A stretch of 49,629 nucleotides of DNA, the filler included, from Ionaspis alba (taxonomy: Eukaryota): NCBI GenBank assembly GCA_964255285.1. It is 2 parts of 2 records of this genome, joined end to end, with 100 filler letters (N's around TTAATTAATTAA, not from the genome) between each part and the next. Parts side by side here need not be neighbours in the genome. Positions count along the whole stretch, not along the records: positions 24,898 to 49,629 come from CAXUUL010000169.1; 1 more part is not named here. One strand, 5' to 3'. A program made the position numbers and the translations under genes. Of this stretch, positions 7,496 to 49,629 are shown piece after piece. Positions within the stretch are counted from its first letter, which is position 1. The number at the start of each line of letters is the position of its first letter. The notes below the pieces were generated by a model. It did not search any database and was not told the origin of the DNA. It saw nothing but the letters and a program-made list of their open reading frames with translations.

Positions 7496-7884
7496 TTTGC
7501 TGAAAGAAGGAATATAAGATCAAGATCAAAGATTCGCATAGTATCGTCATAGAAGAACGTGTAGAATCAATTAAGAGGAAGTGATTGCCAAGGCTGTCCG
7601 CATACAACTCTGGCTTGGTTGCACAAGCACACAATGTGGAGAGTCGTATTTCTTTGACGCAGGGTTGTATTTAATCGGCAATTCAGGAGAAGGAGGACTC
7701 AGTATACCAGATGATGGTGTTGCAGAAGATGTCGTTCTACGAGTGAACATCCTTCAGAAGTTACGGATTAGGAAGTTTGTTGATATTCCAATGGTTGGCG
7801 GGGTAGCCAGTGTGGTTTTCGACCCGGCCAGCTCGACGAGCTCCACAATGACCACGATTTACACTTCACAGCCCCTTGAGGACA

Positions 7885-8835
7885 ATGGCGACTGCCACCG
7901 AACCTCCCACCCCCTCGCTCTTCACAATCACGACACTTCTTTCCCTCCTCTCCACCCTTGCTCTCCTTCTCACAGCCTATGGCGCCTCAATTCGGCTCTT
8001 GCCAAGCTCCACATCTACGAAACTCCGCATCCTCTACATCTGGCACCTTTTTGACGCCCTGATCCATCTCATCCTGGAAGCCTCTTTCCTCTACAACTGC
8101 TTCTTCACCTTTGTTGCTCTCCCTGCCAGAACCACAGACTATCCACACCCAGCTTCTGCGTCTACCTCATACTCTGCTTTCACGCCTCGGGATGTGTATT
8201 TCCTCAGCGATACGGAAAACCTGTACGGCAGCTTTTATGGGACCAACCCCTTTGCCTTGTTATGGCAGGAATATGCAAAGGCGGATAAGCGGTGGGGAGG
8301 GGCAGACTTGACGGTCATCAGTCTGGAGTTGTTAACGGTTCTGTTAGCGGGACCGTTGGCGGTGTATATTACGGAGCTAGTCAGAAGAGGTGGATGGAGT
8401 GGGAACGGAGGTGCTATAACTGGGAAGTTGTGGTTTTGGGGAAGTGTATTAGCTACTGGAGAGCTGTATGGCGGGTGAGTCTTTGGTTACCGCTCGGGCT
8501 TGTTCGACTCGTCTCGCCGACAGGAGGAAAGCAAGGGGAGTGCTGTACGTAGAGCTGACTGATGATAGCTTTATGACTTTTGCGCCGGAGTGGTTGAGCG
8601 GGAATCCGAACTTGGATGCCTCGAACTTTATGTACAAGTCAGTTTCCCACAGCAAAGTCATCTTGTAACCGTCCCGGCCATCTTACTGATAATCACTACT
8701 AGGTGGTTATATCTGGTCTTCTTCAATACCCTCTGGGTATGGTTTCCTCTCTGGGTACTATATGAAGCATATCAAAACATTACCGCGGCTTTCGTAGTCG
8801 CAGAAACAGGCAAGACAAAAAAGAAAGAGACATGA
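7885..8835 (+). CDS. Emopamil-binding protein (EBP/EXPERA)-like membrane protein
   Basis: WHLFDALIH, LWQEYAKADKRW and ELYGG|FMTFAPEW motifs. Introns 8475-8568 and 8638-8702 keep the frame into WLYLVFFNTLWVWFP. Confidence 0.88.
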
Positions 8836-24359: not shown

Positions 24360-25320
24360 CGAAACGTTTTCGATCATTACGCAACGACGATTGAATATAC
24401 TATTAATTTGACTTGTATGGGTGGTTGCTGTAAGTTATATCAACGTTGATGTTGGCAGAGTTTTGTACGGCTCCTATGAACGATCTTTTGCCGAGTAGCT
24501 ACAATGGTGTAGTGGCAGAAGACACCGTCGTAGTCCTAACAACGTTTCTATATATTCAAAACAAGAGATTACGTTGTGGATTGTACCGTTTATGTAAGCA
24601 AAATGTTCGACGTTTTTATTGTTAAACATTCAGATAATTATACCTCTACGGTATCGTGATCACATGAAAATTAGAAAATACAATATTGTAGCGCATAAGA
24701 AAACTTTATTCATAAAAATATACATTAATCTATCGTAATGGTGGTGTCAAATGATTTCAATAATCCGTCGAAATTTTTGTATATCGACGATAGCCGCNNN
24801 NNNNNNNNNNNNNNNNNNNNNNNNNNNNNNNNNNNNNNNNNTTAATTAATTAANNNNNNNNNNNNNNNNNNNNNNNNNNNNNNNNNNNNNNNNNNNNGAA
24901 TTTTAATTATAAATTTAAAAAATTACTAATTCGATAATAAAAAAACAAAAAATTAAATTTATTAATAATAAAAATTCGTTAGAAAAAGACGATTAAATAA
25001 TTTTAAAAAATTAATTAATAAAAAAAAAAAAGAAAATCGGGAGAAACAAGAAAAAAATATTTTAAAAAAAAAAGATTTCTTATATCACATGATATATATT
25101 TATATATTTTATATCGTTAAACGATCCAATAAAAAACTCCCGCGGCTTAACACGTTAAATCTAATAAAAAAAATATATATATATTAATTTTAAAAAAATA
25201 ATATTTACGTAATGACGTCGGAAAATCAACGGTTCAATCCCCCGGGTATTCAATTTTTTTATTTTTAGATAACTAATATTTTCTATATTTAGCCTGTATG
25301 TAATAAATTTTTAGTTTCAG
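24360..25320. mobile_element. AT-rich, RIP-like degenerated repeat relic spanning an assembly gap
   Basis: Abrupt GC drop between two genes, no ORFs, and many remaining C/G occur as CpG. No transposase or terminal repeats are recognisable. Confidence 0.5.
24798..24897. other. Artificial scaffold linker N44-TTAATTAATTAA-N44
   Basis: A 12-mer with stop codons in all six frames sits centred in exactly 100 nt of padding. Confidence 0.9.
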
Positions 25321-29592: not shown

Positions 29593-29710
29593 GGCCGCAT
29601 CTTGGAGTATTTGCTACTAGGAGGGGGCTGTCATGTTTGGTGAAATACTGGTATTTGTTCACGGAGCGTTGACGTCGTCTCGCGAGGTCCACGGCCTAGG
29701 GCTCTTATCG

Positions 29711-30148
29711 CCCCGTGCCTAGGGACCGTAGGCACCAACAGTAGGCACTAGGCTAAAAACGGTGATTTTACCTTAAGAATTTCGCGACACTTTTATATTT
29801 CTTGAGGTTTTACCACGAAATTTGCAGGTAAGTCTTTTCCTTTTAAAGTCCACTACTAACTGTCCATTTAGTCTATACAGATAATCTCGAATCGAGACTA
29901 TGAAACGTTTTTCTCTCGCTACCGCCGCGAAACGCGTAGGGGGGGAGACAAAAACAGGTTCGGGAGGGTAAATGAGGCTCTCGGTGGCCATTACAGAAGT
30001 CAATTAAATCAATTGAAGCTTTGGGGTAAGAGACGAAGGTCGCTGGGCGAGGCGTTTGGACCTCCCCTTTGTACGTTTGAAATTTACGGTAAGTTCCTTT
30101 TTCCGATCTAGCGCCTACTGTGACTGCCTACTGTCCCTAGGCACGGGG
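29711..30148. mobile_element. Non-autonomous DNA transposon (MITE), 438 bp, with 41-bp imperfect TIRs and 8-bp TSD TCTTATCG
   Basis: Left end ccccgtgcctagggaccgtaggcaccaacagtaggcactag versus reverse complement of right end ccccgtgcctagggacagtaggcagtcacagtaggcgctag (first 16 nt identical). TCTTATCG at 29703-29710 and 30149-30156. Confidence 0.9.
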
Positions 30149-32572: not shown

Positions 32573-33507
32573 GGTTATACTAGACCACAGGATAGGAGGA
32601 ACATAGGGAATCATCCTTTGGATATACCAAACATCGTCTTTCTATATCATCAGTTTCGGAAATGTGGTAGAGCACATCGTGTACTCAACACACCACCAAA
32701 TTTATGTTAAGGAAATAATGAGCGGACAAACCAATCTGGCTTAGCCGAACGGTCTTGGCACTTCCCTAGTAGAACGTCAAGCCTTTGGCTGCGCTTTCCA
32801 GTCCACCTTTCCGTCATTCTGAAATCCTCTGTCCGATCTACTCTAGGACCGCATCACAAATACACCGCGACAACGGAGAATCTTATAATGCTGTCTTCGT
32901 TCGTAACTTCATCTAACAACGGGACTGAGGCAATTGCAAAGCTCGTCCAGGAGAACATCCAACCAAAGGTTATCTAACCAACATCCGTCGTTGCCGATGT
33001 GTGTCAATTTTGTTGTGCTGACCACTACGAAACATCTTGCAAGAGACATCTCACAATAACCTGCTCGGGATCTCAATCGGGTGAGGCGCGCTGTCTCCAG
33101 TTGTGGAGCAAATTCCATCTCCGGACAGATAGCCCTGGCCGTCTCAAGCTTTTCCCAACAAATAGGAATATAAGACACTGTTGTTTGATTGTTGTGAGAC
33201 GATCCAACTCGATCAATTCCGCACTACTTATACCACGCCGCTCCTATGTCACATATTCCTTCGTCATCCTGTCTTTCTCTCAGTACCTGGCGAGCTCAAC
33301 TTTGGCGGTCAATCCAGCGACGTACTACTTTTCAGCCAAGGCTCTGGTAGCCACACATAATATCTAATCTCTAATACCACTCGATCACCTAACCGCTGCT
33401 CACGCCAGTGCACCCAATCTTGCTGCATACCCATTCCTCATAAGAATTGACGATAAACTGGTTTTGATCAGACCAGTAAAGACATCAGCCAGCTAAAGTT
33501 TATCAAC

Positions 33508-33812
33508 ATGAGGTCGCAGATCCTAGTTTCCGCTATCGTTCTGCTTGGCTCCTCTGCTCTCGGCTCCGCTTCTCAAGGTCAGGCCATCCGATCTTGGGGA
33601 ATCTGGCCTCGCTAACAGTCAGTCTAGTTGTCATGAGAATCCCAGAGCACGCCATGAACCAATACCGCGCAGTCTTTGACAACACGCCGCTTTTTGAACA
33701 AATCAACGGTGCCAATTTCCACAACCTCGCCGGCTTTCACCCTCTTGCGCTGCCACTGGCTATGGGTGGTAGTGCACAGGGTGGATCTGGAGTTGGTATC
33801 ATGATACTGTGA
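33508..33812 (+). CDS. Possible small secreted protein (about 84 aa) or gene relic
   Basis: Signal-peptide-like exon MRSQILVSAIVLLGSSALGSASQ, donor gtcagg, branch gctaac, and an acceptor that stays in frame with ORF 33594..33812. Confidence 0.35.
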
Positions 33813-35147: not shown

Positions 35148-36693
35148 TCACAAATTTTGCGCACTCGTACTTTCCTGTTCGATTCGATATTGAAGATGGA
35201 TACCATCACCTTCGGGGATCGGCTCTTTCCCTAATCGGACGTATGTCCGCGTAGGCTTAGCTGGGCGCATCGTATACTTATCGTAGACCGAAGAATCGTT
35301 CGGACTTCCATCGATAGCATGTTCTTTCTTGTTTTCTTTAAAACCATCGTATGAACTTGAGCCGGACGATCTGCCGCGGCTTCGATAGGATCGAAAGATG
35401 ATCTTCGAGCTCAAGACGTTCCACGAAGGCAAATGACGTACAAGATTTGTGAATGATGGCTGCAACTCCAAGTCAAAAAGAGTCGGCGTCGCTTTAGAAT
35501 ATGCTTCACCTACCATGCAGCTTGCAGTTATACCAGCGCACATTTCCACAACGCTTGCAATCCCATTAGCTTAAGACTCTGTGAGTCAGGATAAGTACGG
35601 ACCACATCACTAAAACTGGCATTGTTTCATATGTCACGTCCGACGAATATCGGTCAAGTTTCCACTTATAATAAATGCTGAGTGAAGAGGCAACGCAAGC
35701 TCTATAAATTATTGTTAGTAGGACTGTCAGTTAGAATCAAGATATTGAGTAGAACATACATGATACCAGTAAAAAATATGATCATCACTCCAAATTTGCG
35801 CTTATTTGAAAGGCGGAGTCTTGATACGCCAACAATGGGAAGAAGCAAGATATAGACATCAAGTACAAGACTCATACTTGCGATAGGTAGTGTAAGCCGA
35901 AAGGCTCCTTGCATTCGAACGCTTGTAACCGCATCTAAAAAAGTCTGTCCTGGCGCAGGCGCAGTATATGCGAGAGTAGCAATAAGCACAGACAAATAGA
36001 ACAAAACGTTCACCGTGGCACCAGCATAAGACATATAGCGAAGCCATTTCATTGGGCGAAAGATTTGAAGATAGAGCAGGAAGAATGTGAGTTTGACAAA
36101 CGGCCAGATGATCGTGGTAGTCCAGTTTATGAAAAATCCGGTCTAGAAAGATGTCAATGTCTCACACTTCAAATCGTGAACTAAGACACTACTGACCACG
36201 AGAAAATCGTTGCCCGAAATGTCTGCAACTGTCAAATCCCATATATGGGTGCCAAATTTTCCGCGTGTCACAGCTTGCCCATAATCAGCTACGTATAGAT
36301 GTATCAATGTAGAAATTATACTTACCATACATAATGGCAACAAAATAGAGAATTGTCTCGACCTGTTGATTAATATCAGAGTCTGCATTGAATAATTTAC
36401 AATATTAAGGGGAAAGTACCGTCGCAATAATGCAAGTATCTATCATAATTAGCAGGGAATCTATACAGATAGACTGAATACTTGCAATCATCTGGAGTAA
36501 GTTTTTGAACAATCTTCAGCTTCACATAAAGCCTTATTGAGACGAACACAAGCATCATAAAGATCAAAATTGAGCAGATAGCAATAGCGACTGGGCCATT
36601 ACTATAGGGATCAACAAGGTTCGGCGTCACGCCTGGCGGCGGTGTTGCAGCCGGCATTTGAGCTATCTCCACGGCATCAGGGGTTGATTCCAT
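35148..36693 (-). CDS. PTH11/SAT4-like rhodopsin-domain integral membrane protein (no CFEM domain)
   Basis: PAATPPPGVTPNLVDP, IRLYVK...DD|Y, GTHIWD, VKLTFFLLYLQIF, DVYILLLPI, RKFGVMIIF and VEMCAGITASCM|PS motifs; about 8 exons. Confidence 0.85.
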
Positions 36694-38011
36694 GCTGACA
36701 GTCTCAAGGTTAGGGACTTTGGGAAGGCGATTTCAGAAAATCGATCAAGAAGGAAGATACTGATTTGAACGAAAGTAAGACGATGACAACGGAATATAAG
36801 AGCACCAACGCCGAATAGGATTGCCTTGATCAACGGAAGAGATTGGGAACAGTGCCGCAAGAGCGCATAGTCGGCTTTTTCTGCTGTAGTAGAATATACC
36901 AATAAGCTCTATGGCCGCGGAAGTTACATTGTTATCCTAGCCGTTCCTTCTAAACTGGGACATCGCCAGCATGACTGTTTTGATGCCACCATCTTCGAAG
37001 CAGAGATCCTTGAATGTAAGGCTACAGACCTCAGGCAACATAGAAAAGTACATCATGCGAGATTGTGACTTGCGGGTTCGGCCAATAAACCAAGTCAGCC
37101 AATGCAGCTCATCTCCAGGACAAAGGCTGGAAACGAGATGCAGAGAGACTCCAAGGTCTAGATGCAGCTTCTGCCTGCTCCGCGTCCCTTCGGAACAGGC
37201 TCAAAATATCGATAAGAACCAAATGTACAGCCCCGTGCATGACAGTTGGAAAATAAGAAATTGCCTTGACTCCGCGGTGAATATCACGTATTGAGGGGGT
37301 TAGCGGTATAGGTGGCAAGTTAGGCTGTCATGCTCGTGCTTGTGTGGCGTAGTAGACAGGTGTAGAAACTGAAAGTTGACCCCACCTGATGTAAAGACGG
37401 CGCAGGGTAGCATCCGCCCCCACATAGACGCGTTAATAGCCCACCTTTCTCAAATGCATGAAAGGTACCTTCCTGTCTCATCTCCTGCAGTATTACCTCG
37501 GGGCCGGCACATCAAATTGAAGCCAATCGTCCTGAAGAATAAATTACCGTAAAATATCATATTACTATGATATAGTACGACACCCAGTCAACAAAGAATG
37601 AATCTCCCCCACCATCAACGCCAGCCAGTCACATTTGAAGGCAGGAGCAGGATCAAACCTCATGTTTCACGCATAACTCAGCCGCAATGGCAAGAGTCAT
37701 ATAAAATTTCAAGGATATACTGCAGCGCTAGTTGCAGTGTTGCCTTGGACTCAATTCCTGGGATTTCTCGTGAATTAGTGTTTTTGCTAATGTGACAATA
37801 TCGTGCAGGCACCTTTGACTATCAGCTGAGCGTTCCTATCGGAGCTTCACCGCTCGCTTTTTGTGCTGAGTGGTTATAAATTCTGTGGCAGGAATTGCTT
37901 CCCACAGGTATACAGCGAGATATCAATTACCAACATTCCCTTTACCTTAATATCTCTAGTTGTTTCCGCAACTGGCTTTCCTCTGATCGACCCAGAGTTG
38001 GCTATCTTGCC

Positions 38012-40078
38012 ATGAATGCTTCATTTCTGTTCGGCTTGTCCTTTGAAGAGGTTATGGAAGTCATCTTTGTTTTCCTGCTGTCAGGAATTCTAACCTGCAT
38101 GGTGTACGCGCCTTATAGTCTCTCAAAGCTCGTCAGGTCTTTGCAGATCTCAGCTTCATGGATGCTCACGCCATTAAGAAGGCCGATGGTCTCCTCTATT
38201 TACGGGATGATGAAAGACTTTGTATGGATCTATCTTGATATTTTCTGCGCCGTCTAATCCAAAATAGCGAGCAGGAGTCTTCTACAGTCCATTTCGGAAA
38301 GCATGTCCTGTACTTATCCGCTCACCGGACGCAATGCTTGAACTAAGTGAAGCACCTGAACTATCTCAGAGGGCCGTCTACGCGGATGTATGATCAATTT
38401 TTTATATATCGTTTTGTGCTTAGAGATAACAGATTTTTGGTCTCCAATACACTATGGCTCATGCCAGGATCAGCTTCGATCCTAACGAGCAGACAAACCT
38501 CAGGTATCGCCTTTTTGCGAGAGCCATACGGCTGAATGGAATTGCTCAGCTAGAATCTCTGGAACCGTACCTACGAGCTAGGCTGGAGCAGAGCTTGACC
38601 AAGGAAATTGATCTTCAACTCACAGATGGTACGCATCAATTGCTGAACTGCTTGATAAACATTGACGCCTGACAGATTGGACGCCAATCAAAATTGCGCC
38701 TGTCATGCGAAGCCTCGCTACAGGCATGCTTGGAGTCTATGTTTTTGGGAGTGCTCTTGGTATACTTCCCATATTTTCTTACATTTGACTGCTTGGATGA
38801 CATGCTGAAGTCGACTTGCCTTTGAAACCCCAGCCTAGGTGGTGACTTCTTTGTTTAGGAAAAAGTAACATGTTAAGTGTCTGTGCAGCAGAAGAATCTG
38901 ACTTTTCATTCGCCATGTCGCAATACTACAACGATACGATCGCCTGTATGGGAGCACTACAAATTGCTCCTAGTTTCATGAAGTCGTATGTTGAACACGA
39001 TATACTTACATTCCATGGGATAATTATTGATTTCTACAGCTTTGTATACTCCTTGATCACCCGGAAGGGCCGAGCTTTAGACATTCTTTTGACGCGTATG
39101 TTGGATGCTGTGGATCCCAAACACAGCAACTGGGAAGAGAATGAAAATCTCAGACGTGTAAGTCTTTATTTTATCCTTAGAATACAAGATGTCTAACATA
39201 TAGTGCGGTAGATGACCCTCCTTCACAACATGATTGAAGCATCCCAAGATTCAGAGTATTGGACGAATACAGCTATTATTCAAGCTATTATAGGAATCTG
39301 GTTTGCTGCGTCGCATCAACCTTGGCTTGTAAGTATTGTCTTTTACTCCTTGCACATCGATGAGCTAATGTGTAAAGAATTTGCATTTTGTGTTTTTAGA
39401 ACTCTGTGCTCGACCAGAATACATCGAACTCTTGCGCGAAGAAATCAGACAACAGGAACGTCTTGATTACAAGCATCTTATTCAGATGCCAATCCTAGAC
39501 AGTTTTATCAAGGAATCAGTGAGACTCAATCCACTTGATAAGAGTACGTTTCATGACAATTGATATCGACACTATTTCGCTGACTTTTACAAGTGGCGAT
39601 TCGTCGCAAGGCACTTCGACCTTATACTTTCTCACATGGCGGACCTCATGTGGCCTCTGGAGAGATAGCTTGCGTCCCGGCATGGGAAATCATGCATAAC
39701 GAATCGAGGTACCCCCAACCAGATGAATTTGATGGCCTTCGCTTTGCTCAAAACACTATCGCCACAATGTCAAAACAAGGAGAAAGCGATCAACGCGGTA
39801 CAACCTTCACCGATGCCTCAAAGGACTTTCCGATCTGGGGTCTTGGATCCAAAGTCTGGTAAGCGTTTTCATACGAGATGTTTACAGTCTTCTAACCCGT
39901 AACGTTCAGTCCTGGCAGATGGCACGCTTCTTTTGTAATGAAGCTGGCCCTCGTCCACTTGATCACGAACTACGATTTCCGGTTGAAGGACAATAATACA
40001 CGCCGAAAGTGGTTCTGGGAGACATTTCAGTTGCCTTACGAATCCACAGAGGTTCTCTTCAAGAAGAGACAGCAGTAG
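38012..40078 (+). CDS. Cytochrome P450 monooxygenase (intron-rich)
   Basis: N-terminal TM segment, I-helix GIWFAASHQ, K-helix DSFIKESVR, FDGLRF, and heme motif WGLGSKVC|PGRWHA split by intron approx. 39859-39909. About 9-10 introns; the 5' exon structure is uncertain. Confidence 0.88.
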
Positions 40079-40375
40079 CGTGTAAACATTCGAAGGCTAG
40101 ATATAAATAGTTGAAAAGAATTCATGGGTGATTCCGTGCTTCAGGGCCACTGTAAAAATAGAATTCCTCGTATCCAAAGCATTCAATACCCAAAGACTAG
40201 TGAAGCGATTGACCCCCACCATTTTTTTGCCGTGTCTGCGAGTCAGCCTCGTTCACCCAGGTCCCACCAATAGATCACACATAAAGCTCTGCACCTTTGC
40301 TTCTGTCAGTTTTGGCTGATCAGTATCTTTGATATTTTCGTAGCACGCATTTCTAAGGATCCACCACCCAAGCAA

Positions 40376-41300
40376 ATGATCATGTCAAGCTTTTCGATGG
40401 CTTTAAAGGAACATCGCGAGCTGTCTCTTTCTGATAAGAATATGGATCCACGAAAAAGAGAGCGTACAATCCCAATGCAAGTCCTGAGCCTAGGCATGCC
40501 GCGCACTGGAACGGCGTGTGAGTGAACTATTTGGAGATCATCATCAGTTTGAAGTCCACTGATCATGATACAAAGCTATGCAAGAAGCACTAAACAGATT
40601 GGATATCCCATGCTACCATGGCTTCACGCTCATTCTCAATCTACAAGATACAGAAATGTGGAATAAAGCGCTGGATGCGAAGTTCTTCGGCAAGGGCACG
40701 CGCTTCACCATATCAGAGTGGGACCAGCTACTGGGCAATTACGCTGCAGTCACGGATCTCCCTGCGATTGCATTCTCAGACGACCTCATCGAAGCCTATC
40801 CAGATGCTAAAGTTGTCCTTGTCGAGCGCGATATTGAGAAATGGTACCAGAGCTTCCATGATGGCATCATCTCGAATTTGTGGAGCCCAATTCTACTAGC
40901 TATAGCCAGCTTGGATCCCTACTTTATGGGGCGGATGTGTGGCACTGCTCAGCGCTGGTCAAGGGGTTGGATGAAGGCACATTCGAGGCAGGAAATGGAG
41001 CAGAATGCACGCAGCAAGTATCAAGAGCACTACGCATTAGTGAAGAAGGTTACCCCCAAGGAGAGGCTGTTGGAATTCGACCTCAAAGACGGTTGGGGGC
41101 CACTGTGCAACTTCCTGGGCAAGCCGATTCCAGACGTACCATTTCCGCATACCAATGAGTCAGCTGCACTCAAGGAGATCATCAATATCATAACTATTCG
41201 TGGTGCGAAGAACGCGCTTCTTCATATCGCCAAGGTATTGCTGCCGCTCCTTGTTGCTTTCGTGGCGTATCGAATTTACACCACAACAAGTAAATTGTGA
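40376..41300 (+). CDS. Sulfotransferase-like P-loop protein (Sulfotransfer_4 family) with a C-terminal membrane anchor
   Basis: 5'-PSB-like LGMPRTGTA|SMQEAL (intron 40518-40575), CYHG, AVTDLP, 3'-PB-like RDIEKWYQS, DGWGPLCNFLGKPIPDVPFP, and a hydrophobic tail. The start codon is uncertain. Confidence 0.8.
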
Positions 41301-42099
41301 GAGTCCTGACTTTTGGAGGATGGTTAGTCGAATTAAAATGCAACAGCAGGACAAGGTAGTGCATGTAGTAGCTGCGGAAAACCAATAACGACTGCTAGTA
41401 ATACGTAGCGAATCGATTTTACACCGAATACCTCGAGTGGGTTATTACTCTCTCTTCTACTCACCTCATTATTTACATACCTAATATTAGATTGAAGTGG
41501 TATTACCAGTTTAGGGCGAATTCTGATTGGTCGTTGACCCCGGTCGCAACCTCCGATTCCCGTTGAGACCGATCTGCAATTCCAAGTGACAACAATTCCA
41601 CTATTAACAGTTGAAAAGTTGTATATAAAATTGAATTGGAATTGTCTCGCCGAACGCATTCTAACGTACCAACTTACAGTATCTTTAACCTAATATATTA
41701 AAAAGTATTGTTAAAAGTAGTTGATTCTACATCCGTGTCCCCAATACGAGTGAGGCATTTTGTCAAACTTGACTTTGATTGGTTAGATTAACCTTCAATT
41801 TTCTCCCAACGCTATAACCCAGGAATAGCGAGATGCCTAGTGTGCACAGAGGCTTCGAGATCGGGAGACGGAGTAGTCTTATGTGATAATTGAGATGATG
41901 ATGAAGATAATGGGTTAGGCTGATTAGCGAGGGGCCTGTATAAGTCTTAAGACGGAGATCTAGTCTTTGAATGCTAGGCTCATGCTTATTCTTAGAGCTC
42001 AAAAAAATAGAAATAGACGTAGAAGCAATGAATTCTTGAATTGATGGCCAGAACTAAGATACTCTTAAATATTCAGAGGGAGCCGGCATCAATCCTGTT

Positions 42100-43061
42100 T
42101 CACCGATTTTTCATTTGATCCAGTCCCGTCCCCTTTATCATCAAGGAATCCTGGCCATCATGTCAATATTTCTATATCGCTGAAAAGGATTGAGTCTGGG
42201 ATCATAACATACCCATAAGGATACCGGAACCCAGTTTGACATAAATTTCACGCTCGAGGCATAGCCGCCTTTCCATATTTGCCAATTTGCACCGTCCAAG
42301 ACTTCTTTGACAACTTTCTCGGCGTACTGTTGCGGCGTCATCCGAGGTACGTTATCTTCGCCTCTTGCCCGTGCTGCAACTGTGTCTTCAATACTGGAAT
42401 ACACGGAGTTGGGCGGAAGCTTGAAGTCTTTTGCTGAATCAAGTATGCGGCTGCTCACCGCCCCTGTCATCACACTCACAACCTTGACCCCAAAAGGTGA
42501 AAGTTCTAAACGCAGTGTCTCGGAGATCTGCGTCAGTGCCGCCTTGGAGCCAGCATAGATACCTGGCCGTACTTGTCAGCAGTCTTTTCAACAAAATATG
42601 CACACCGCACTTTAGGTGTGCACACTTAACCACGGCGTCCGACAGCATGAGCTGATGGAGCATGTGTAGACGATTGTGCCCTTAGCTGCTATCACTAACG
42701 GAGCAAACACCTGTGTGACCCGTACCGCTCCCCAAAGATTGATATCGTACATCGATTTCGCTGTCTCAATATCAAAATCCAAGATCGGGGCCATGAGCGT
42801 CTGGCCTGCATTGCTGACAAGGTAGTCAAGTGTGCCACCAGTCTCTTGCTTGACGCGTTCCATTGCAGCCTGAACACTCTCAGGCAAGGTCGGATCAAGT
42901 GTGAGAAGGACGACATTGGGAAGGGCTTTGAGATGTGACATCTTAGTAGGATCGCGTGCGGTAGCAAAGACGTGTAAGTTAGACTTTTGAAAAACCTCAA
43001 CGAGGGCAGAGCCGATGCCGCCAGCGCTGCAGCCGGTGATGAGGACGGACTTGAGAGCCAT
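42100..43061 (-). CDS. Short-chain dehydrogenase/reductase (Ayr1/17beta-HSD-like)
   Basis: LITGCSAGGIG, VSNAG and catalytic IYAGSK motifs. Introns 42625-42563 and 42212-42151. Confidence 0.92.
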
Positions 43062-43932
43062 GACGGAGTTGAATGACGGGAATGTTGTCGACTGTCATGG
43101 AACGAAGCTCAAGAGGGAGCTGAGGTGAAATCTAAAAGTAGCCATATACTGCGGGTTGTGAATGGGCGGGGCAAGGCAACACTGGAATAAACAAAGAAAA
43201 GGGTGGGAGGGCGGATTCTCCCCCACCATGCACCACAGCACTTAACCACCAATTGAATCTACACCAAATCTAGCCCAATACCGGCCTGGAATCTCATCCT
43301 CGGGTAAGAAGCACCTGCGTGCCAGCCACGATGATATACATGAGACATGTGCATGTACGTTATTCCTACAAAGTACCTACCTATTTAGTGTAGTTCGAAA
43401 AGGCCAACGGCGTAACGGCGTAGCGGCGGGAAGGTGTGCGGGAGAACGGACGCTAATGCAATGAGGCTGCACGGTTGTACTAACGGTCGGCTCGGGTCGT
43501 CCCATGGATCAGCATCGTATGTGTGAGCCCCTACCGCTGGCACCTCCTCCGCGATCTTGGAAATACGAGCAGTGCCTCAACGGTGCTTCCTGTATCAATA
43601 TATGCTGATCAACCTGCATGGTAACCGCCCCCAATATCAGCTCGCCATGATAACCTGGTATCGAGGGTCGCAGCGTTGCATTGCCTACAGATACAAGGAT
43701 CAATGATGGACTCACAAATCAAACATGCTGGCAGTGCTTATCTAGCCAACGAGGTTTAGTATGAGGTCGCTGGTTTTATTGCATACGATCTTGAAAGATT
43801 GTAAGATTGTGAAATATAAAAATGCCTTCAAGAAAAATTCTCTGGTAGATTGAGTGCTCCCAAGCTGCCCTTCACCCATATTGATAGCTGTGTATTTTGT
43901 ACAGAGTCACTCATCATTGTCAATTCTGCGAC

Positions 43933-45831
43933 ATGGCATTTGACACCCCGAGTATCGGAAGTTTGCTATGGCTTTCTGATAGCTCGCAAGATCTATATGG
44001 CTACAAGCAAATGGCTAGAGCAATCATTGGCTGCGTCTCAGTGTATTTGTTGTGGAGATTCTGGAAATTCTCCTTGACACCTTATTTCTATCCAGATGAA
44101 CCCAAAGAACTTCCTTACTGGATCCCAGGTAAATCTCTGTTCCGGAAGCTCAAATTGCTTTTGAATATTTTGTATGACTGATTCTGTGGTGTTCAGTCTT
44201 AGGTACGATAATCAATTGAAGGCCAATGTAAAGATTGTCGACGTCGTTTTACGAAGGCTAACATATCTGTAAAGGCCACGCTGTAGGGTTTTTCAGAAAC
44301 TCATATGCCGTTCTAGAAAATGCACGGTAAGCTCTGAACGATAAAATTTCAATCTATGTGCTCACGCATCGCAGTATATACTTTGGCAATACTCGCGAAC
44401 CATATCGAATTACCGTAGCTGGAAAAAGCATCTATGTTCTGACCAATCCTAATGATGTGCAAGAGCTCTACAAGAACACCGTCTCGATATCTTGGCTTCG
44501 TTTCGTCCAGGATCTATACCGTTGGATTGGCTTTTCCCCGCAAACAATGGAAAACCTCTGGAAAAATCCCACTCAAGAGCAAATGGCCGTCAATCCTGTC
44601 CGTAATAGCCCGCCAAATGACATGGTCGTAGAGTACGAGCGTCGCCAGCTTCTCCCGGGCCCTAATCTGGATCGACTCGCAGCCGTCCTACTTGAACATA
44701 TCACCAAGATCACAAGCCAGAATTACCTGGATATGGAAAGACCATTTGTCCTAGAACGGGATACCGATAGTGTCCAAGTGAATCTGATGGAGTGGACATC
44801 TCATTCGATCATACATGCTATGACTGAGATTTACTGGGGCCAGGCCATCTTCCAAGCAGAACCAGATATAGTGCCGGCTTTCATGAGGTGGGAGGCTTTG
44901 ACGTGGAAGTATGTGTTTCAGCTTCCACGTTTCATAAGCAAAGATATGTACGCCAGTAGAGATCAACTTATCGGTGCTTTTGCAAAATATTTCAGTATTG
45001 CCAAAGCAGATCGAAAGGACACGAATTGGTTTGTTTCCACTAGTGAGGCAGAATTGCGGGACATTGGACTCGATGACCGCGACGTTGGAAGAGTGCATAT
45101 GTTACAGCATTGGGCGTGAGTCTTCCCATTCAATTTCACGAAAGCTATCAGTGGTGACAAACTCTAGCATCAATGGTAATATGCACAAAGTGGTCTTCTG
45201 GATCTTCTCGCACCTCCTTCACGATCAGTCCCTCCTCGATGTCATCCGTCAGGAAACAGCTCCAGGTATTGCCAATGAGAACCTCGATGTAGCCTTCCTC
45301 ACAGGGCAATGTCCCCGCTTGGACTCCGTTTACCACGAAGTCCTACGCTTACGAATGGCCACCTCCTTAATGCGGTATGTCACTGCTCCCACACGCATTG
45401 GCACCAAGATCCTCCATGCCGGCCACAATGTGATGGTGCCATACCGTGAACTACATTACAACGAGGAAATATGGGGAGTCAAATCGTCTGAGTTCAATTC
45501 AGAACGCTTTCTAAAGGACAAGAGCCTGGCGCGTAACCCCAGTTACAGACCTTTTGGCGGCGGACAGCATCTTTGCCCTGGTCGCTTTCTTGCTAAGCAG
45601 TCTGTGTTTGCATTCGTAGCTTTGGTTTTGCATCGGTTTGACCTAGCTCTAGTGAAAGATAAGGGATGTGGGGACGAATTCCCGAGGCCAGACGAGACCA
45701 AGCCAGGCCTCGGATCTTTGCCTCCCTTAAAAGGTGATGATGTGGTTGTGAGATTGAGCCCCAGAGAAATCGATAATGGAGCATCACATGGGAAGAAAAT
45801 GTACTGCACCCAACGGGCCTTATTGTCATAG
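43933..45831 (+). CDS. Cytochrome P450, CYP7/CYP8 (sterol hydroxylase/prostacyclin synthase)-like
   Basis: PKELPYWIP|VLG|HA, I-helix HWA|INGNMHKVVFW, EVLR, SERF and heme PFGGGQHLCPGR. Four introns, including a 6-nt microexon at 44197-44202. Confidence 0.9.
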
Positions 45832-45934
45832 AAACTTCAAATTTTAGGCTCAGTATTTGCCCGTCAGCATACCTATTGCAACTTTCTCTTTGATATCTCT
45901 GCGACTAATTGGTTTAACAATGTAGAGATTTCAT

Positions 45935-47702
45935 CTAAACTGCTGATGAGGTCAATTTCTTTTCTTCTACCAGCCCGAACTCTGTGTTCAATTCTGTGCG
46001 CAACTTGAGTTCTTCTTCAAAGAAAACAACAAGGAAAGTGAACGCAGATATAGCAATAGCCACCTGCCATACAAGTTTAAGACTGCCTTCAAATACGCCG
46101 ACAATTTGCATTTGTAGTTCCGGGTCTGCAGCAAAGGAATCGATATAAGCTTTTGTAGCGTGCTCATAAGCGTGTCCTTTATCAAGAACCGCTCTAACTT
46201 CGGGATTATTGATCTGGTGCAAGAGATCCAGGAATCGGTTGTTGAATACGGTTGCAGAAATTGTGATGCCCCATATGGTCCCGAAACTGCGCAGGAAAGC
46301 CCAGATACCAGTTGCTGTGGCTGCGTCTTCCTCTGGAAGCCCTGCTTGCACTGCTGCCAAAAGAGTCCCAATCGATAGTCCAGTCCCGGCCGAAAAAATG
46401 ACCTGGACGATCGTCCACACTGCGGTAGAAGAAGTTGCAGTAAGCAGGGTGAAAAGCCCAAGCCCAATTGTCATGAGGCCAAAGCCACCTAGATGAAATG
46501 GCTTATACCTGCCCCACTGCTCCATAGCAATGCCCCCAACCGCGGCAAAAACCATCAGCGGAATGACGGTAGGAAGGAGTTGGACCCCAGATCGAGTCGG
46601 AGCCGAACGTAACACGCCTTGGAAATATACGGGCAGAAAGTATATCTCCCAAATCATGAGCAGGGTATGAAAGAAGGTGAGTACGAACACGGTTGCAGAG
46701 GTCCGGTTGGAGAAGAGGCGTTTGGGGAGCGTTGGCTCGAGACAGAAGCGAGAGACCTCATAGACGTAGAAAAGGCATAGGCCAGCAAGACCAAAAACCA
46801 GAGGAACGACAGTGCGCCAGGATGACCATGCATGTGTTGTGCCGCCGCCTGTGAGGGCTAAAAGGATAGAGATGACGCTCAGCACAAATATCGCATTGCC
46901 TAAGAAATCGATCCGCTTGAGCTTCTGCATAACGGTGGACTCCTTGTCGTAGTTGACCTGTAAGAATGCGAGCAAGAGCACAAACGCAATTCCAGCCACA
47001 GGGATATTGAGATAAAATGCCCATCGCCATGTAGCATTTTCAACCATGATGCCACCGAGGAAAGGACCCAGAGCTGTCCCAATAGTTGCGACGCCAAATA
47101 CGATGCCCATAACAGTACCACGCTCACGTACTGGTACAAGGTCGCTGACGATGAGATCGACCATCATAGTGACGCCGCCTCCACCAATGCCCTGTACTGT
47201 ACGCCCTGCTATAAGCATAGGCATATCGCTTGCGCCCCCGCTGAGACCACTTCCGATCATAAACAACGCAACAGCTGATATGATAAGCCATCTCCGGCCC
47301 ACGACATTGGCGGCTTGTCCATAGAATGGCTGGAATGCGGTACTGTGTTTGAAGTATTAGCCTACAAACAAATGAACAATGTTGGAGCCTTTATCTAAGC
47401 TTAACACAAACAAACCTGGTCAAGAAATATGCATTCACTACCCAAATATAGTCATGTCCACCTCCTATATCGTTCACAATTGTTGGTAAGGCCGTTGACA
47501 CAACAGTGCCTTCAAGAGCCGGTAGCATGCCAACAATAGATAGAGCCGCAATCGTTGTCCAGTAATGCCAATTCTTCTTGAGAGGCTCTCTGATAGATGC
47601 TTGGACTTCGATTTGACCGTTTGCAGCATCAGCCAAAGTATTACCCGCGTTTTTGGCAGAAACCGGCATGATGGTGTGGGATTTTTCCCCGATAGAAGAC
47701 AT
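45935..47702 (-). CDS. MFS drug:H+ antiporter (DHA2, 14-TMS) efflux pump
   Basis: LEGTVVSTALPTI, intron 47415-47343, GRTVQGIGGGG, DLVPVRERG, WRWAFYLNIP and FLPVYFQ motifs. Confidence 0.93.
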
Positions 47703-48513
47703 GCTAGATATCAGTTTGAGCCAATGCGGTTGCGTTTTTGCGAATCAGAAAAAAACAGAGAATAATGCGGGATATCAGATTTCGGTAAACGACTTTATTC
47801 AGTCATAGGATATGGGAGCGTTGCTTGAGCCTATCGCAAGAGCCTCACAAATTGTCGGGGGCCCGGGGAAAAAACAACAACCCCCTTCATTCGAAGCATT
47901 GGCCGACACAATCAAGCTACTCGGATCTCCATAATGCCTATCATCTACCATGCCATGTTGTGGGACCACAGCCTCCTGAATTGGAAGGTACTGCGACTGA
48001 AGCATTCAACCAAGTACAAACGACATCATGCAAGTCTCTCGACGCCGCCTCCTGATATTGCTGCATTCCTACTCGGACAAGGGGTTTTTTCCAGACCCAA
48101 GATAGTATGCAGTGAAGTGGCACTCTAGCCCATTAGACTCGTACACAGGTTTCGAGATGCATATGTAGCGTATATGCATGTAATCGTCTGTGCATATACA
48201 GTTGCAGCGCCGTACGCAGCGTACTGCTTACTGTTGTACTTCCACTCGCGATGATGTGTGGTCTCGACCACAACGTGAAGGGACTTTGTTCGGTCCCAGG
48301 CACCGCCGCTGTTTTTCTCAGCTCAATGCCACCATTAGAATGTTTGGAAAGTCTCTTCGCAAATATGACTGACCACTGTGCCAAACGTTTTTTACTTCCT
48401 TTTCCTGCCACAAATTCAGCTTTCCAAATCAGCATTCAATTATTCAAACTTAGGATTTGCTGAACAAACCTTCAAATCATTTTTTAGCCCAATTTCTCAT
48501 CTATCACACCGTC

Positions 48514-48967
48514 ATGACATCCTCATTGTTGCCGCAAGCCAATGGACTCTTACCGTATTGGATGTTTATTGTACTGCACCCCTTCTTGCGTATGACGGAA
48601 CGCCGTGGTATCTTAACCTCAGATTCTAATACGTTTTCAGGTCGCCTTACTTGCGATCTATCAGACCATTCAGGCGCACGCTGCTTCTGCCCAAGCTTCT
48701 AATCCCAAGAGTGACTCTCTACTCTCGACCCGGCATATCGGCGCCTGGACTTTGCTGGCGAGCGTCTTGCATGTTTACACGGCCTATGACATCGGTAACA
48801 GCACGCTCTATACCCTTGCGGTGTGGTCGTTTGGGATTGTTTTTGTCCACTATGCTCTTGAGGTGTTGGCGTTTGGCTTGCGCGAGCGCTACCCAATAAT
48901 AGCGCTGAGTATCTCGACTGGCAGTCTGGCTTGGATGCTTATGTGCCGCGAGTACTATGTAGGATGA
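48514..48967 (+). CDS. Divergent Erg28-like sterol-enzyme scaffold protein
   Basis: Intron 48571-48640 gives MTSSLLPQANGLLPYWMFI|VALLAIYQTIQA...LSTRHIGAWTLLASVLHVYTAYDIGNSTLYTLA...HYALE...ISTGSLAWMLMCREYYVG. This matches the fungal Erg28 pattern (GLLPxW, RTFGTWT, AAYNI, HFxSE, SLxWM..YY). Confidence 0.8.
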
Positions 48968-49629
48968 GTCCTGGCTTTTGTCGTCTATAAAAGCATTGGC
49001 TGAGTAGTATCTTGGCACAATTACCTTTACCAACGCCATTCGTGCAATTCGTCACATATAAAAGAAGAAAATATGATGACAAATTCTCAACCCACAGCTC
49101 CAGCCTTCTTCCCCTTCCTATCATTTGCCCTCTGTTTCTTCTCGTTTCTCCTGACTTTCTCGACCCTGTCTCTCCTGCCCTTCCCTCGTACGGTCTTCCC
49201 CTCGCGGTCTTGTATAGAACGATCTACCCTGCGTCGCGGAGTCTAATCACATCTCCTATACACCAACACTTGTCGAAACTTCTGATATATTCGAAAACTA
49301 GACTAGTCTGTTGAACAAGAAGGGTTTTGGCCTGTTCTACACTTGATCTGTTTTTCATATTGCAGAGTCAGCTATCACCAGAACATTTACTTGTATAACG
49401 AAATCACGACTCGTTGCACCGCCGAAACTGCATTCAACCATTGTATGCTGGCATTTCCGTACGTATGGTAGGGAGCAGTCTCGCATGGAAATATCGGAGG
49501 CTTCTCTCCCGAGACGACTAGTCGAATGTCTGCGCTCGTACTTGACGGGGAAAGAAATTGAGCAATTTCCGCTCCTCACATCTTTGTCCGCTGACAAGTA
49601 GAGTACTGTATATCACTTGTACTGACCAG

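Follow-up and report, generated by a model that had tools for sequence, protein, structure and literature searches.

Seven linked tailoring genes in Ionaspis alba, including a second Erg28-family gene, form a largely conserved cluster that may modify and export a sterol

What does a fungal gene cluster act on when it encodes enzymes that could oxidise, conjugate and export a compound, and none that would build one? This question is raised by a stretch of 49,629 nucleotides (nt) from Ionaspis alba (assembly GCA_964255285.1, which comprises 18.3 Mb in 1282 contigs and is possibly incomplete), hereafter the window, in which seven genes, g1 to g7, lie side by side between positions 35148 and 48967. 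Here we find that the seven genes are a selected unit kept together, not a chance island, and we propose, with a probability of about one half, that they specify an endoplasmic reticulum (ER)-bound pathway, conserved in mostly lichen-forming fungi and operating without a scaffold enzyme of its own, that would oxidise, reduce, sulfate and export a sterol. The substrate, the order of steps, the cellular location and every activity we infer from sequence.

Gene models were built from sequence alone by our own splicing under GT..AG rules, and Pfam matches were scored on single exons. All seven genes could be spliced at GT..AG introns into reading frames that stay open up to one stop codon at the end; together with the single-exon matches, the models bear out the claim of a preliminary description of this DNA that seven contiguous, intact genes of the following families are present. 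The list also includes a gene remnant that follows g7.

35148..36693, minus strand: g1, PTH11/SAT4-like membrane protein with a fungal rhodopsin domain; 409 amino acids (aa), 6 introns; PF20684, E = 8e-15
38012..40078, plus strand: g2, cytochrome P450; 513 aa, 9 introns; PF00067, E = 3e-8
40376..41300, plus strand: g3, PF17784 sulfotransferase; 288 aa, 1 intron; E = 1e-63
42100..43061, minus strand: g4, short-chain dehydrogenase/reductase (SDR); 278 aa, 2 introns; PF00106, E = 1e-23
43933..45831, plus strand: g5, CYP7/CYP8-type P450; 552 aa, 4 introns; PF00067, E = 1e-27
45935..47702, minus strand: g6, DHA2-type exporter of the major facilitator superfamily (MFS); 564 aa, 1 intron; PF07690, E = 2e-37
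48514..48967, plus strand: g7, divergent second Erg28-family protein; 127 aa, 1 intron; PF03694, E = 1e-16
49021..49203, minus strand: remnant of the 3' end of RRS1, about 40 codons plus 3' flank, the upstream part gone

Three divergent pairs (g1/g2, g4/g5 and g6/g7) make up most of the cluster, with g3 lying behind g2.

Do these genes belong together? When contigs from metagenomes were scanned with 24 aligned sulfotransferases, 121 pattern matches arose and 12 loci were confirmed. Further cluster genes are carried by eight of these loci (L005-L011 and L013), and because these eight are 96-100% identical to one another we counted them as one species, referred to below as the second fungus. Orthologues of g5, g1, g4, g2 and g3 are present in six of the eight (L005-L008, L010 and L011), the remaining two, on short contigs, holding g4, g2 and g3; in four loci (L005-L007 and L011) the g5 orthologue is followed, tail-to-tail, by the 3' end of g6. 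The resulting order, g6-g5-g1-g4-g2-g3, packs six genes into about 11 kb and is shuffled relative to the window, yet g2-g3 and g5/g6 remain paired: the g2 orthologue stands directly upstream of the sulfotransferase gene in eight of the 12 loci, and g2 and g3 are co-oriented in both genomes. Identity between the window and the second fungus is 50-67% in the main exons (63% for g1 in the exon compared, and 56-68% for the g4 orthologue, which is present in eight of the 12 loci), and the tblastn breaks in the g2 orthologue coincide with the exon ends of g2 itself. Across seven exon pairs, synonymous divergence is saturated (pS 0.76-0.92) and nonsynonymous divergence (dN) is 0.24-0.39; the cluster genes are under purifying selection. 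Comparison of the flanks of the two clusters by tblastx found nothing in common. That a fungus so far diverged still has six of the seven genes together, in another order and between flanks that are not related, indicates that the cluster put forward in the preliminary description is a real, selected unit.

The association extends to a third genome, that of Pyrenodesmia sp. 2, in which Q9184_001479 (a sulfotransferase, 61% identical) and Q9184_001483 (g5-like, 46%) are both on contigs of 66,545 nt and are separated by three tags, matching the three genes that lie between their counterparts in L011. Six g5 homologues were found, all named from lichen fungi. In a quick sulfotransferase tree of 69 chosen rows out of 127 aligned, an orthogroup of 49 of the 69 rows (SH-aLRT 93) holds all six cluster-linked rows; its named genera are Pyrenodesmia, Kuettlingeria, Flavoplaca, Polycauliona, Xanthoria, Usnea, Thelotrema, Bogoriella, Bathelium and Lachnellula, nine of which we take to be lichen-forming. 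Judging from their relatives, the window fungus and the second fungus are probably lichen-forming as well.

If the genes work as a unit, on what would they work? We favour a sterol mainly because g7 is an Erg28 paralogue. Work in yeast and human describes Erg28 as a scaffold, itself without catalytic activity, for sterol enzymes (PMC7397035, PMC9730225). Two Erg28s are present in the assembly, an ordinary ERG28 on contig C252 (128 bits) and g7 (60 bits), so that what had been noted as an Erg28-like protein is a divergent second copy beside the ordinary one. Scored directly against PF03694, g7 reaches 61.1 bits (curated cut-off 22.2), and its top Atlas matches are Erg28 clusters (0.92-0.93). 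The protein has a shorter first loop, a long branch and four predicted helices; the AlphaFold model of exon 2 likewise contains four helices (pLDDT 89.9), and 13 of 16 columns conserved at ≥80% are kept, the differences falling at exon 2 positions 33, 44 and 71. By profile, four-helix layout and conserved residues, g7 thus belongs to the Erg28 family. A fold search with the g7 model returned helical bundles only, the best being a tetraspanin (Z 10.2, rmsd 2.8, 105 residues aligned), which is below the caution level for such folds.

Searching with g7 by phmmer gave 146 relatives, the best of them 34-44% identical, and a word-index search gave 0 matches among 8 candidates. In a careful Erg28 tree of 69 rows (P0007-P0070 under 260 aa plus five cluster members), g7 branches together with 14 sequences that also have a short loop, every one of them a metagenome protein either unnamed or labelled 'hypothetical' (15 of 69 rows; support 97/88, and 0.72 in a 158-row FastTree). 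Some of these relatives may also sit near sulfotransferases: ENA contigs of the same size (10,730 and 23,823) are common to cluster-type sulfotransferases (P0189, P0331) and short-loop Erg28s (P0041, P0177), amounting to two size matches among 25 x 166, for which a jitter null gives P(≥2) = 0.005. A metagenome scan with the Erg28-like P0170 yielded 177 pattern matches and 0 confirmed loci.

Inspection of g3 revealed a GxPRTGT loop and CYH, DLP and RD motifs that align with solved PF17784 members, as well as one C-terminal hydrophobic helix (residues 260-278); the protein is related to Schistosoma sulfotransferases, to SgdX2 and to 9kf1, and its profile match and 3'-phosphoadenosine-5'-phosphosulfate (PAPS)-binding and catalytic motifs mark it as a predicted PF17784 sulfotransferase. 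The assembly holds at least five PF17784 loci and one APS-kinase-domain match. The Rossmann glycine motif and YxxxK are present in g4; g6 is placed in the DHA2 type by a TIGR00711 match (E = 6e-45) that falls below the curated cut-off. Of the two P450s, g2 has the heme cysteine and ExxR; most P450s carry a catalytic threonine in the I-helix, and by our own reading the g2 model has glutamine at that position. An Atlas search with one g2 exon returned generic P450 clusters only. The I-helix of g5 has a W-x-x-x-G-N motif in place of the acid-alcohol pair; its homologue P0002 has the same motif, at which it aligns to CYP8A and CYP8B1, and a single-sequence search places CYP8A and CYP8B1 first (E = 1e-14 to 1e-13). 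The structure model of the g5 family has a pLDDT of 52.7, too low a value for a fold search, and a literature search on CYP7-clan enzymes of fungi gave plant papers. A 6-nt micro-exon in g5 (44197-44202, between two introns), which gene callers may miss, restores the motif of homologues P0004 and P0006.

Is the cluster truly without a core gene? The preliminary description had reported no polyketide synthase (PKS), nonribosomal peptide synthetase (NRPS) or cyclase in the window. This stands for contig C169 (window 24898-49629, the whole contig), within which no scaffold-forming gene is found, and it carries less weight for the window as a whole: positions 24798-24897 are an artificial joiner, a 12-nt word between two 44-N runs, so the window consists of two unrelated contigs and its left half is uninformative on the cluster locus. 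An EXPERA/EBP-domain gene near 7852-8478, left of the joiner, is for the same reason without linkage to the cluster. On the other side, C169 ends 662 bp past g7, and the last 100 nt of the window overlap no other contig of the assembly. In sequencing run X1, which probably represents the source sample, a 27,516-nt contig matches window 35224-49629 over its first 14,406 bases and continues for 13,110 nt beyond; run X2 holds low-depth, near-identical pieces from the same study, which are not independent support. Contig C476 (13,100 nt), close in size to the 13,110-nt overhang, was considered as the continuation past g7 and not accepted, its size including three runs of about 100 N; it carries a TRP channel gene and no core gene, besides a set of familiar families described below. 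In the second fungus, the roughly 10 kb that follow g3 in L006 and L011 contain no core gene. Degenerate fragments, including an AMP-binding C-terminal piece (E = 2e-5), occupy L011:13300-16300, where no intact NRPS-like gene was seen.

The RRS1 remnant is 78% identical to a full RRS1 on contig C816 and may mark the cluster edge. Left of g1, C169 continues with a small secreted-type gene and then with AAA ATPase, Snf7, PITH and DEAH helicase genes, which are housekeeping in character. The small gene (about 33500-33812, plus strand, between the AAA ATPase gene and g1) has a signal-peptide-like start and one apparent intron, and matched nothing in Pfam; upstream of the AAA ATPase gene, window 29700-30143 is repeat-like, with several-fold higher depth and many variants in run X1. 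The guanine-cytosine content of the cluster (0.461) is similar to that of the housekeeping part (0.476) and so gives no compositional sign of transfer. The seven intergenic regions contain nothing that resembles a sterol regulatory element and have no convincing word in common; one of the motifs looked for also appears in PMC7397035.

Could a scaffold be supplied from elsewhere in the genome? Genome-wide counts of scaffold enzymes are lower bounds, given the possible incompleteness of the assembly. Within its 18.3 Mb there is no type I PKS match and there are 0 NRPS condensation-domain matches; of three ketosynthase matches, one reads as a thiolase and two were judged to be fatty-acid enzymes from their size and domains. 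The one oxidosqualene cyclase resembles an ordinary ERG7, a label given by our own reading. A single terpene synthase match, on contig C95 (L018:193-2049), lies beside an open reading frame resembling the start of a P450, and C95 is possibly a separate terpene cluster. Such a profile, with no type I PKS or condensation-domain match beside at least five PF17784 loci and several CYP7-like P450s, is unusual in a fungus that has its nearest homologues in lichens. This scarcity of alternative scaffold enzymes favours a substrate drawn from primary metabolism.

Several CYP7-like P450s are encoded in the assembly, and islands with similar families occur on other contigs: a g2-like P450, a sulfotransferase and an MFS gene on C628 (L027); two CYP7-like P450s, a g2-like P450 and a rhodopsin-domain gene on C352 (L020); and a rhodopsin-domain gene, a CYP7-like P450 and an MFS gene on C476 (L028/L029). 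No core gene was found in the stretches of these islands that were read.

We favour, at the even odds given above, a pathway in which a sterol would be taken from the ergosterol pathway and oxygenated by two ER P450s (g2 and g5), with the SDR (g4) adjusting how far a hydroxyl or ketone is oxidised. The putatively tail-anchored sulfotransferase (g3) would then add sulfate from PAPS at the membrane, and the MFS protein (g6) would export the product; the sulfate might be retained, or might be eliminated later, as happens with withanolides, where it is a leaving group. Being an Erg28 paralogue, g7 could arrange these enzymes at the ER or channel an intermediate into their path, and g1 may be a sensor or accessory protein. 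Known fungal sterols that carry a sulfate include ergokonins and integracide A. The earlier proposal of an ER-bound route that oxidises, reduces, sulfates and exports a sterol is thereby strengthened in part, by the selected unit, the second Erg28 and the lack of PKS and NRPS matches in the assembly, while the sterol substrate itself stays at the level of prediction. A bolder version, in which an ancient module in several lichen classes makes, exports and senses a sulfated steroid as a symbiosis signal, with a neofunctionalised g7 forming a private ER complex that draws off a sterol intermediate and the PTH11-like protein acting as receptor, is a long shot.

A number of observations weigh against the sterol proposal. 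By approximately unbiased (AU) tests, a sister relationship between g7 and the ERG28 of its own genome is not rejected (p = 0.44 with 30 rows; p = 0.083 with 69 rows). The link between Erg28s and sulfotransferases elsewhere is one of equal contig sizes and nothing more; the Erg28s concerned, P0041 and P0177, differ from each other although their two sulfotransferases fall in one 90% cluster, and the contig sizes of the short-loop Erg28 cluster P0087 are unlike those of the second fungus's sulfotransferase. None of the 12 loci has an Erg28-like gene, and none covers the place where one is expected, upstream of g6. A sulfotransferase tag neighbours just one of the six g5 homologues (among the best 120 of 283 sulfotransferase matches); of the other five, one sits on a 1,967-nt contig, and four form their own sub-branch in the tree. 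The CYP7/8-type motif is not specific, since an unlinked paralogue on C476 has W-x-x-x-S-N, and a profile search places CYP17 above CYP7/8; with such a motif in an unlinked paralogue and the same families in the islands on C352, C628 and C476, the enzymes themselves are weak pointers to a sterol. Finally, the core-less status covers the stretches read, with 13.1 kb past g7 and the sequence beyond g6 in the second fungus unseen, and an assembly in 1282 contigs may lack core genes and does have one terpene synthase.

How do other explanations account for these data? It is possible, though doubtful, that the genes are the tailoring half of a non-sterol pathway whose scaffold, another terpenoid, a polyketide or an amino-acid derivative, comes from a core gene past g7 or elsewhere, with g2 and g3 hydroxylating and then sulfating it in the manner of the P450 McfP and the sulfotransferase McfS. 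The mcfP/mcfS O-sulfonation genes are described as lying apart from the FR901379 NRPS cluster (PMC9987125, PMC10832530), and the adjacent, co-oriented g2 and g3 of both genomes would suit such an arrangement, as would the terpene synthase on C95 and the fact that the flank unseen in the two fungi is the same one. Yet the assembly shows neither a type I PKS nor a condensation domain, even if these counts are lower bounds; the 10 kb or so downstream of g3 in L006 and L011 offer just a short AMP-binding C-terminal fragment; the RRS1 remnant already follows g7; and the Erg28 paralogue would be left unexplained.

A detoxification or catabolic module, in which a compound from the photobiont, from a competitor or from the fungus's own oxidised sterols is sensed, activated by the P450s and SDR, sulfated and exported by the MFS protein, appears unlikely to us. 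Detoxification follows an oxidise-conjugate-export order, which the gene set fits, and it makes a core gene unnecessary; the nearest solved relatives of g3 include oxamniquine-acting Schistosoma sulfotransferases, and further islands of the genome contain these families too. Nevertheless, a fixed six-gene set maintained across saturated synonymous divergence suggests a single defined substrate, and the Erg28 paralogue fits such a module only if the substrate is an ER sterol, which brings it near to the pathway proposed here. That accessory genes without a pathway in common have come to lie together by chance near the end of a contig is largely refuted and in our estimate very improbable. The families are large and do co-occur in other islands, and the sulfotransferase stands without other cluster genes in four of the 12 loci; L012, however, is outside the orthogroup, identity is just 36% for L015 and L016, and the contig of L014 measures 1 kb. 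The six orthologues within about 11 kb of a diverged fungus, in shuffled order and between unrelated flanks, and the matching tag spacing in Pyrenodesmia sp. 2 argue against chance in any case.

Should the sterol reading hold, the cluster would encode a route to steroid sulfates in a fungus and would show Erg28 drawn into specialised metabolism. Among open-access literature titles, with MIBiG and subscription journals outside the scope, none describes this gene set, a lichen sterol sulfate, a fungal steroid-sulfate pathway or such a use of Erg28; few lichen gene clusters have been tied to products, and those in the titles found are mostly polyketide clusters. Because no core gene is seen, tools that seek core genes would probably miss the cluster, and it is easily overlooked even though its sulfotransferase orthogroup is named in ten genera. 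Since six or seven genes and, probably, host sterols would suffice, the proposal is directly testable in yeast or Aspergillus oryzae.

How does the cluster compare with known systems? The C-4 demethylation scaffold Erg28 is matched by g7 in its score above the Pfam cut-off, its four predicted helices and its 13 of 16 conserved columns (PMC7397035, PMC9730225), but g7 is a second copy within a specialised cluster, and there is no ERG25, ERG26 or ERG27 among the seven genes. FgSULT1 is, like the predicted g3, a PAPS-dependent fungal sulfotransferase (PMC7690957); its 5'-phosphosulfate motif is TYPKSGT, however, as opposed to GMPRTGT in g3, and it is described as a phenolic sulfotransferase that is reluctant on steroids and mostly found away from gene clusters. 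The mcfP/mcfS pair forms a cluster apart from the genes for the scaffold that it sulfates (PMC9987125, PMC10832530). An adjacent P450 and sulfotransferase pair is likewise seen in g2-g3 here and in eight of the 12 loci, but mcfP/mcfS act on an NRPS peptide, whereas no condensation domain was found in this possibly incomplete assembly. In the withanolide clusters of Solanaceae, which act on a sterol, genes for P450s, an SDR and a sulfotransferase surround one for a sterol isomerase, and sulfate serves as a leaving group; as megabase-scale plant clusters they offer an analogy and no claim of homology (bioRxiv 10.1101/2024.12.24.630284).

Another parallel is the vid cluster for demethoxyviridin in Nodulisporium sp., which has no cyclase among its 19 listed genes, draws on the ergosterol pathway and includes P450s, SDRs and MFS transporters; one of its P450s, VidE, is annotated as a 25-hydroxycholesterol 7-alpha-hydroxylase and takes part in an early step of the pathway (PMC5943271). 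It differs from the cluster described here in its 19 genes, six P450s, Baeyer-Villiger enzyme, esterase and Bet v1-like proteins, and the words 'Erg28' and 'sulfotransferase' do not occur in the text of that paper. By the likeness of gene families, and with no claim of orthology, we suggest that the seven genes described here may work as the core-less vid cluster does (PMC5943271; PMC8403587), with a sterol from primary metabolism as the scaffold to be modified.

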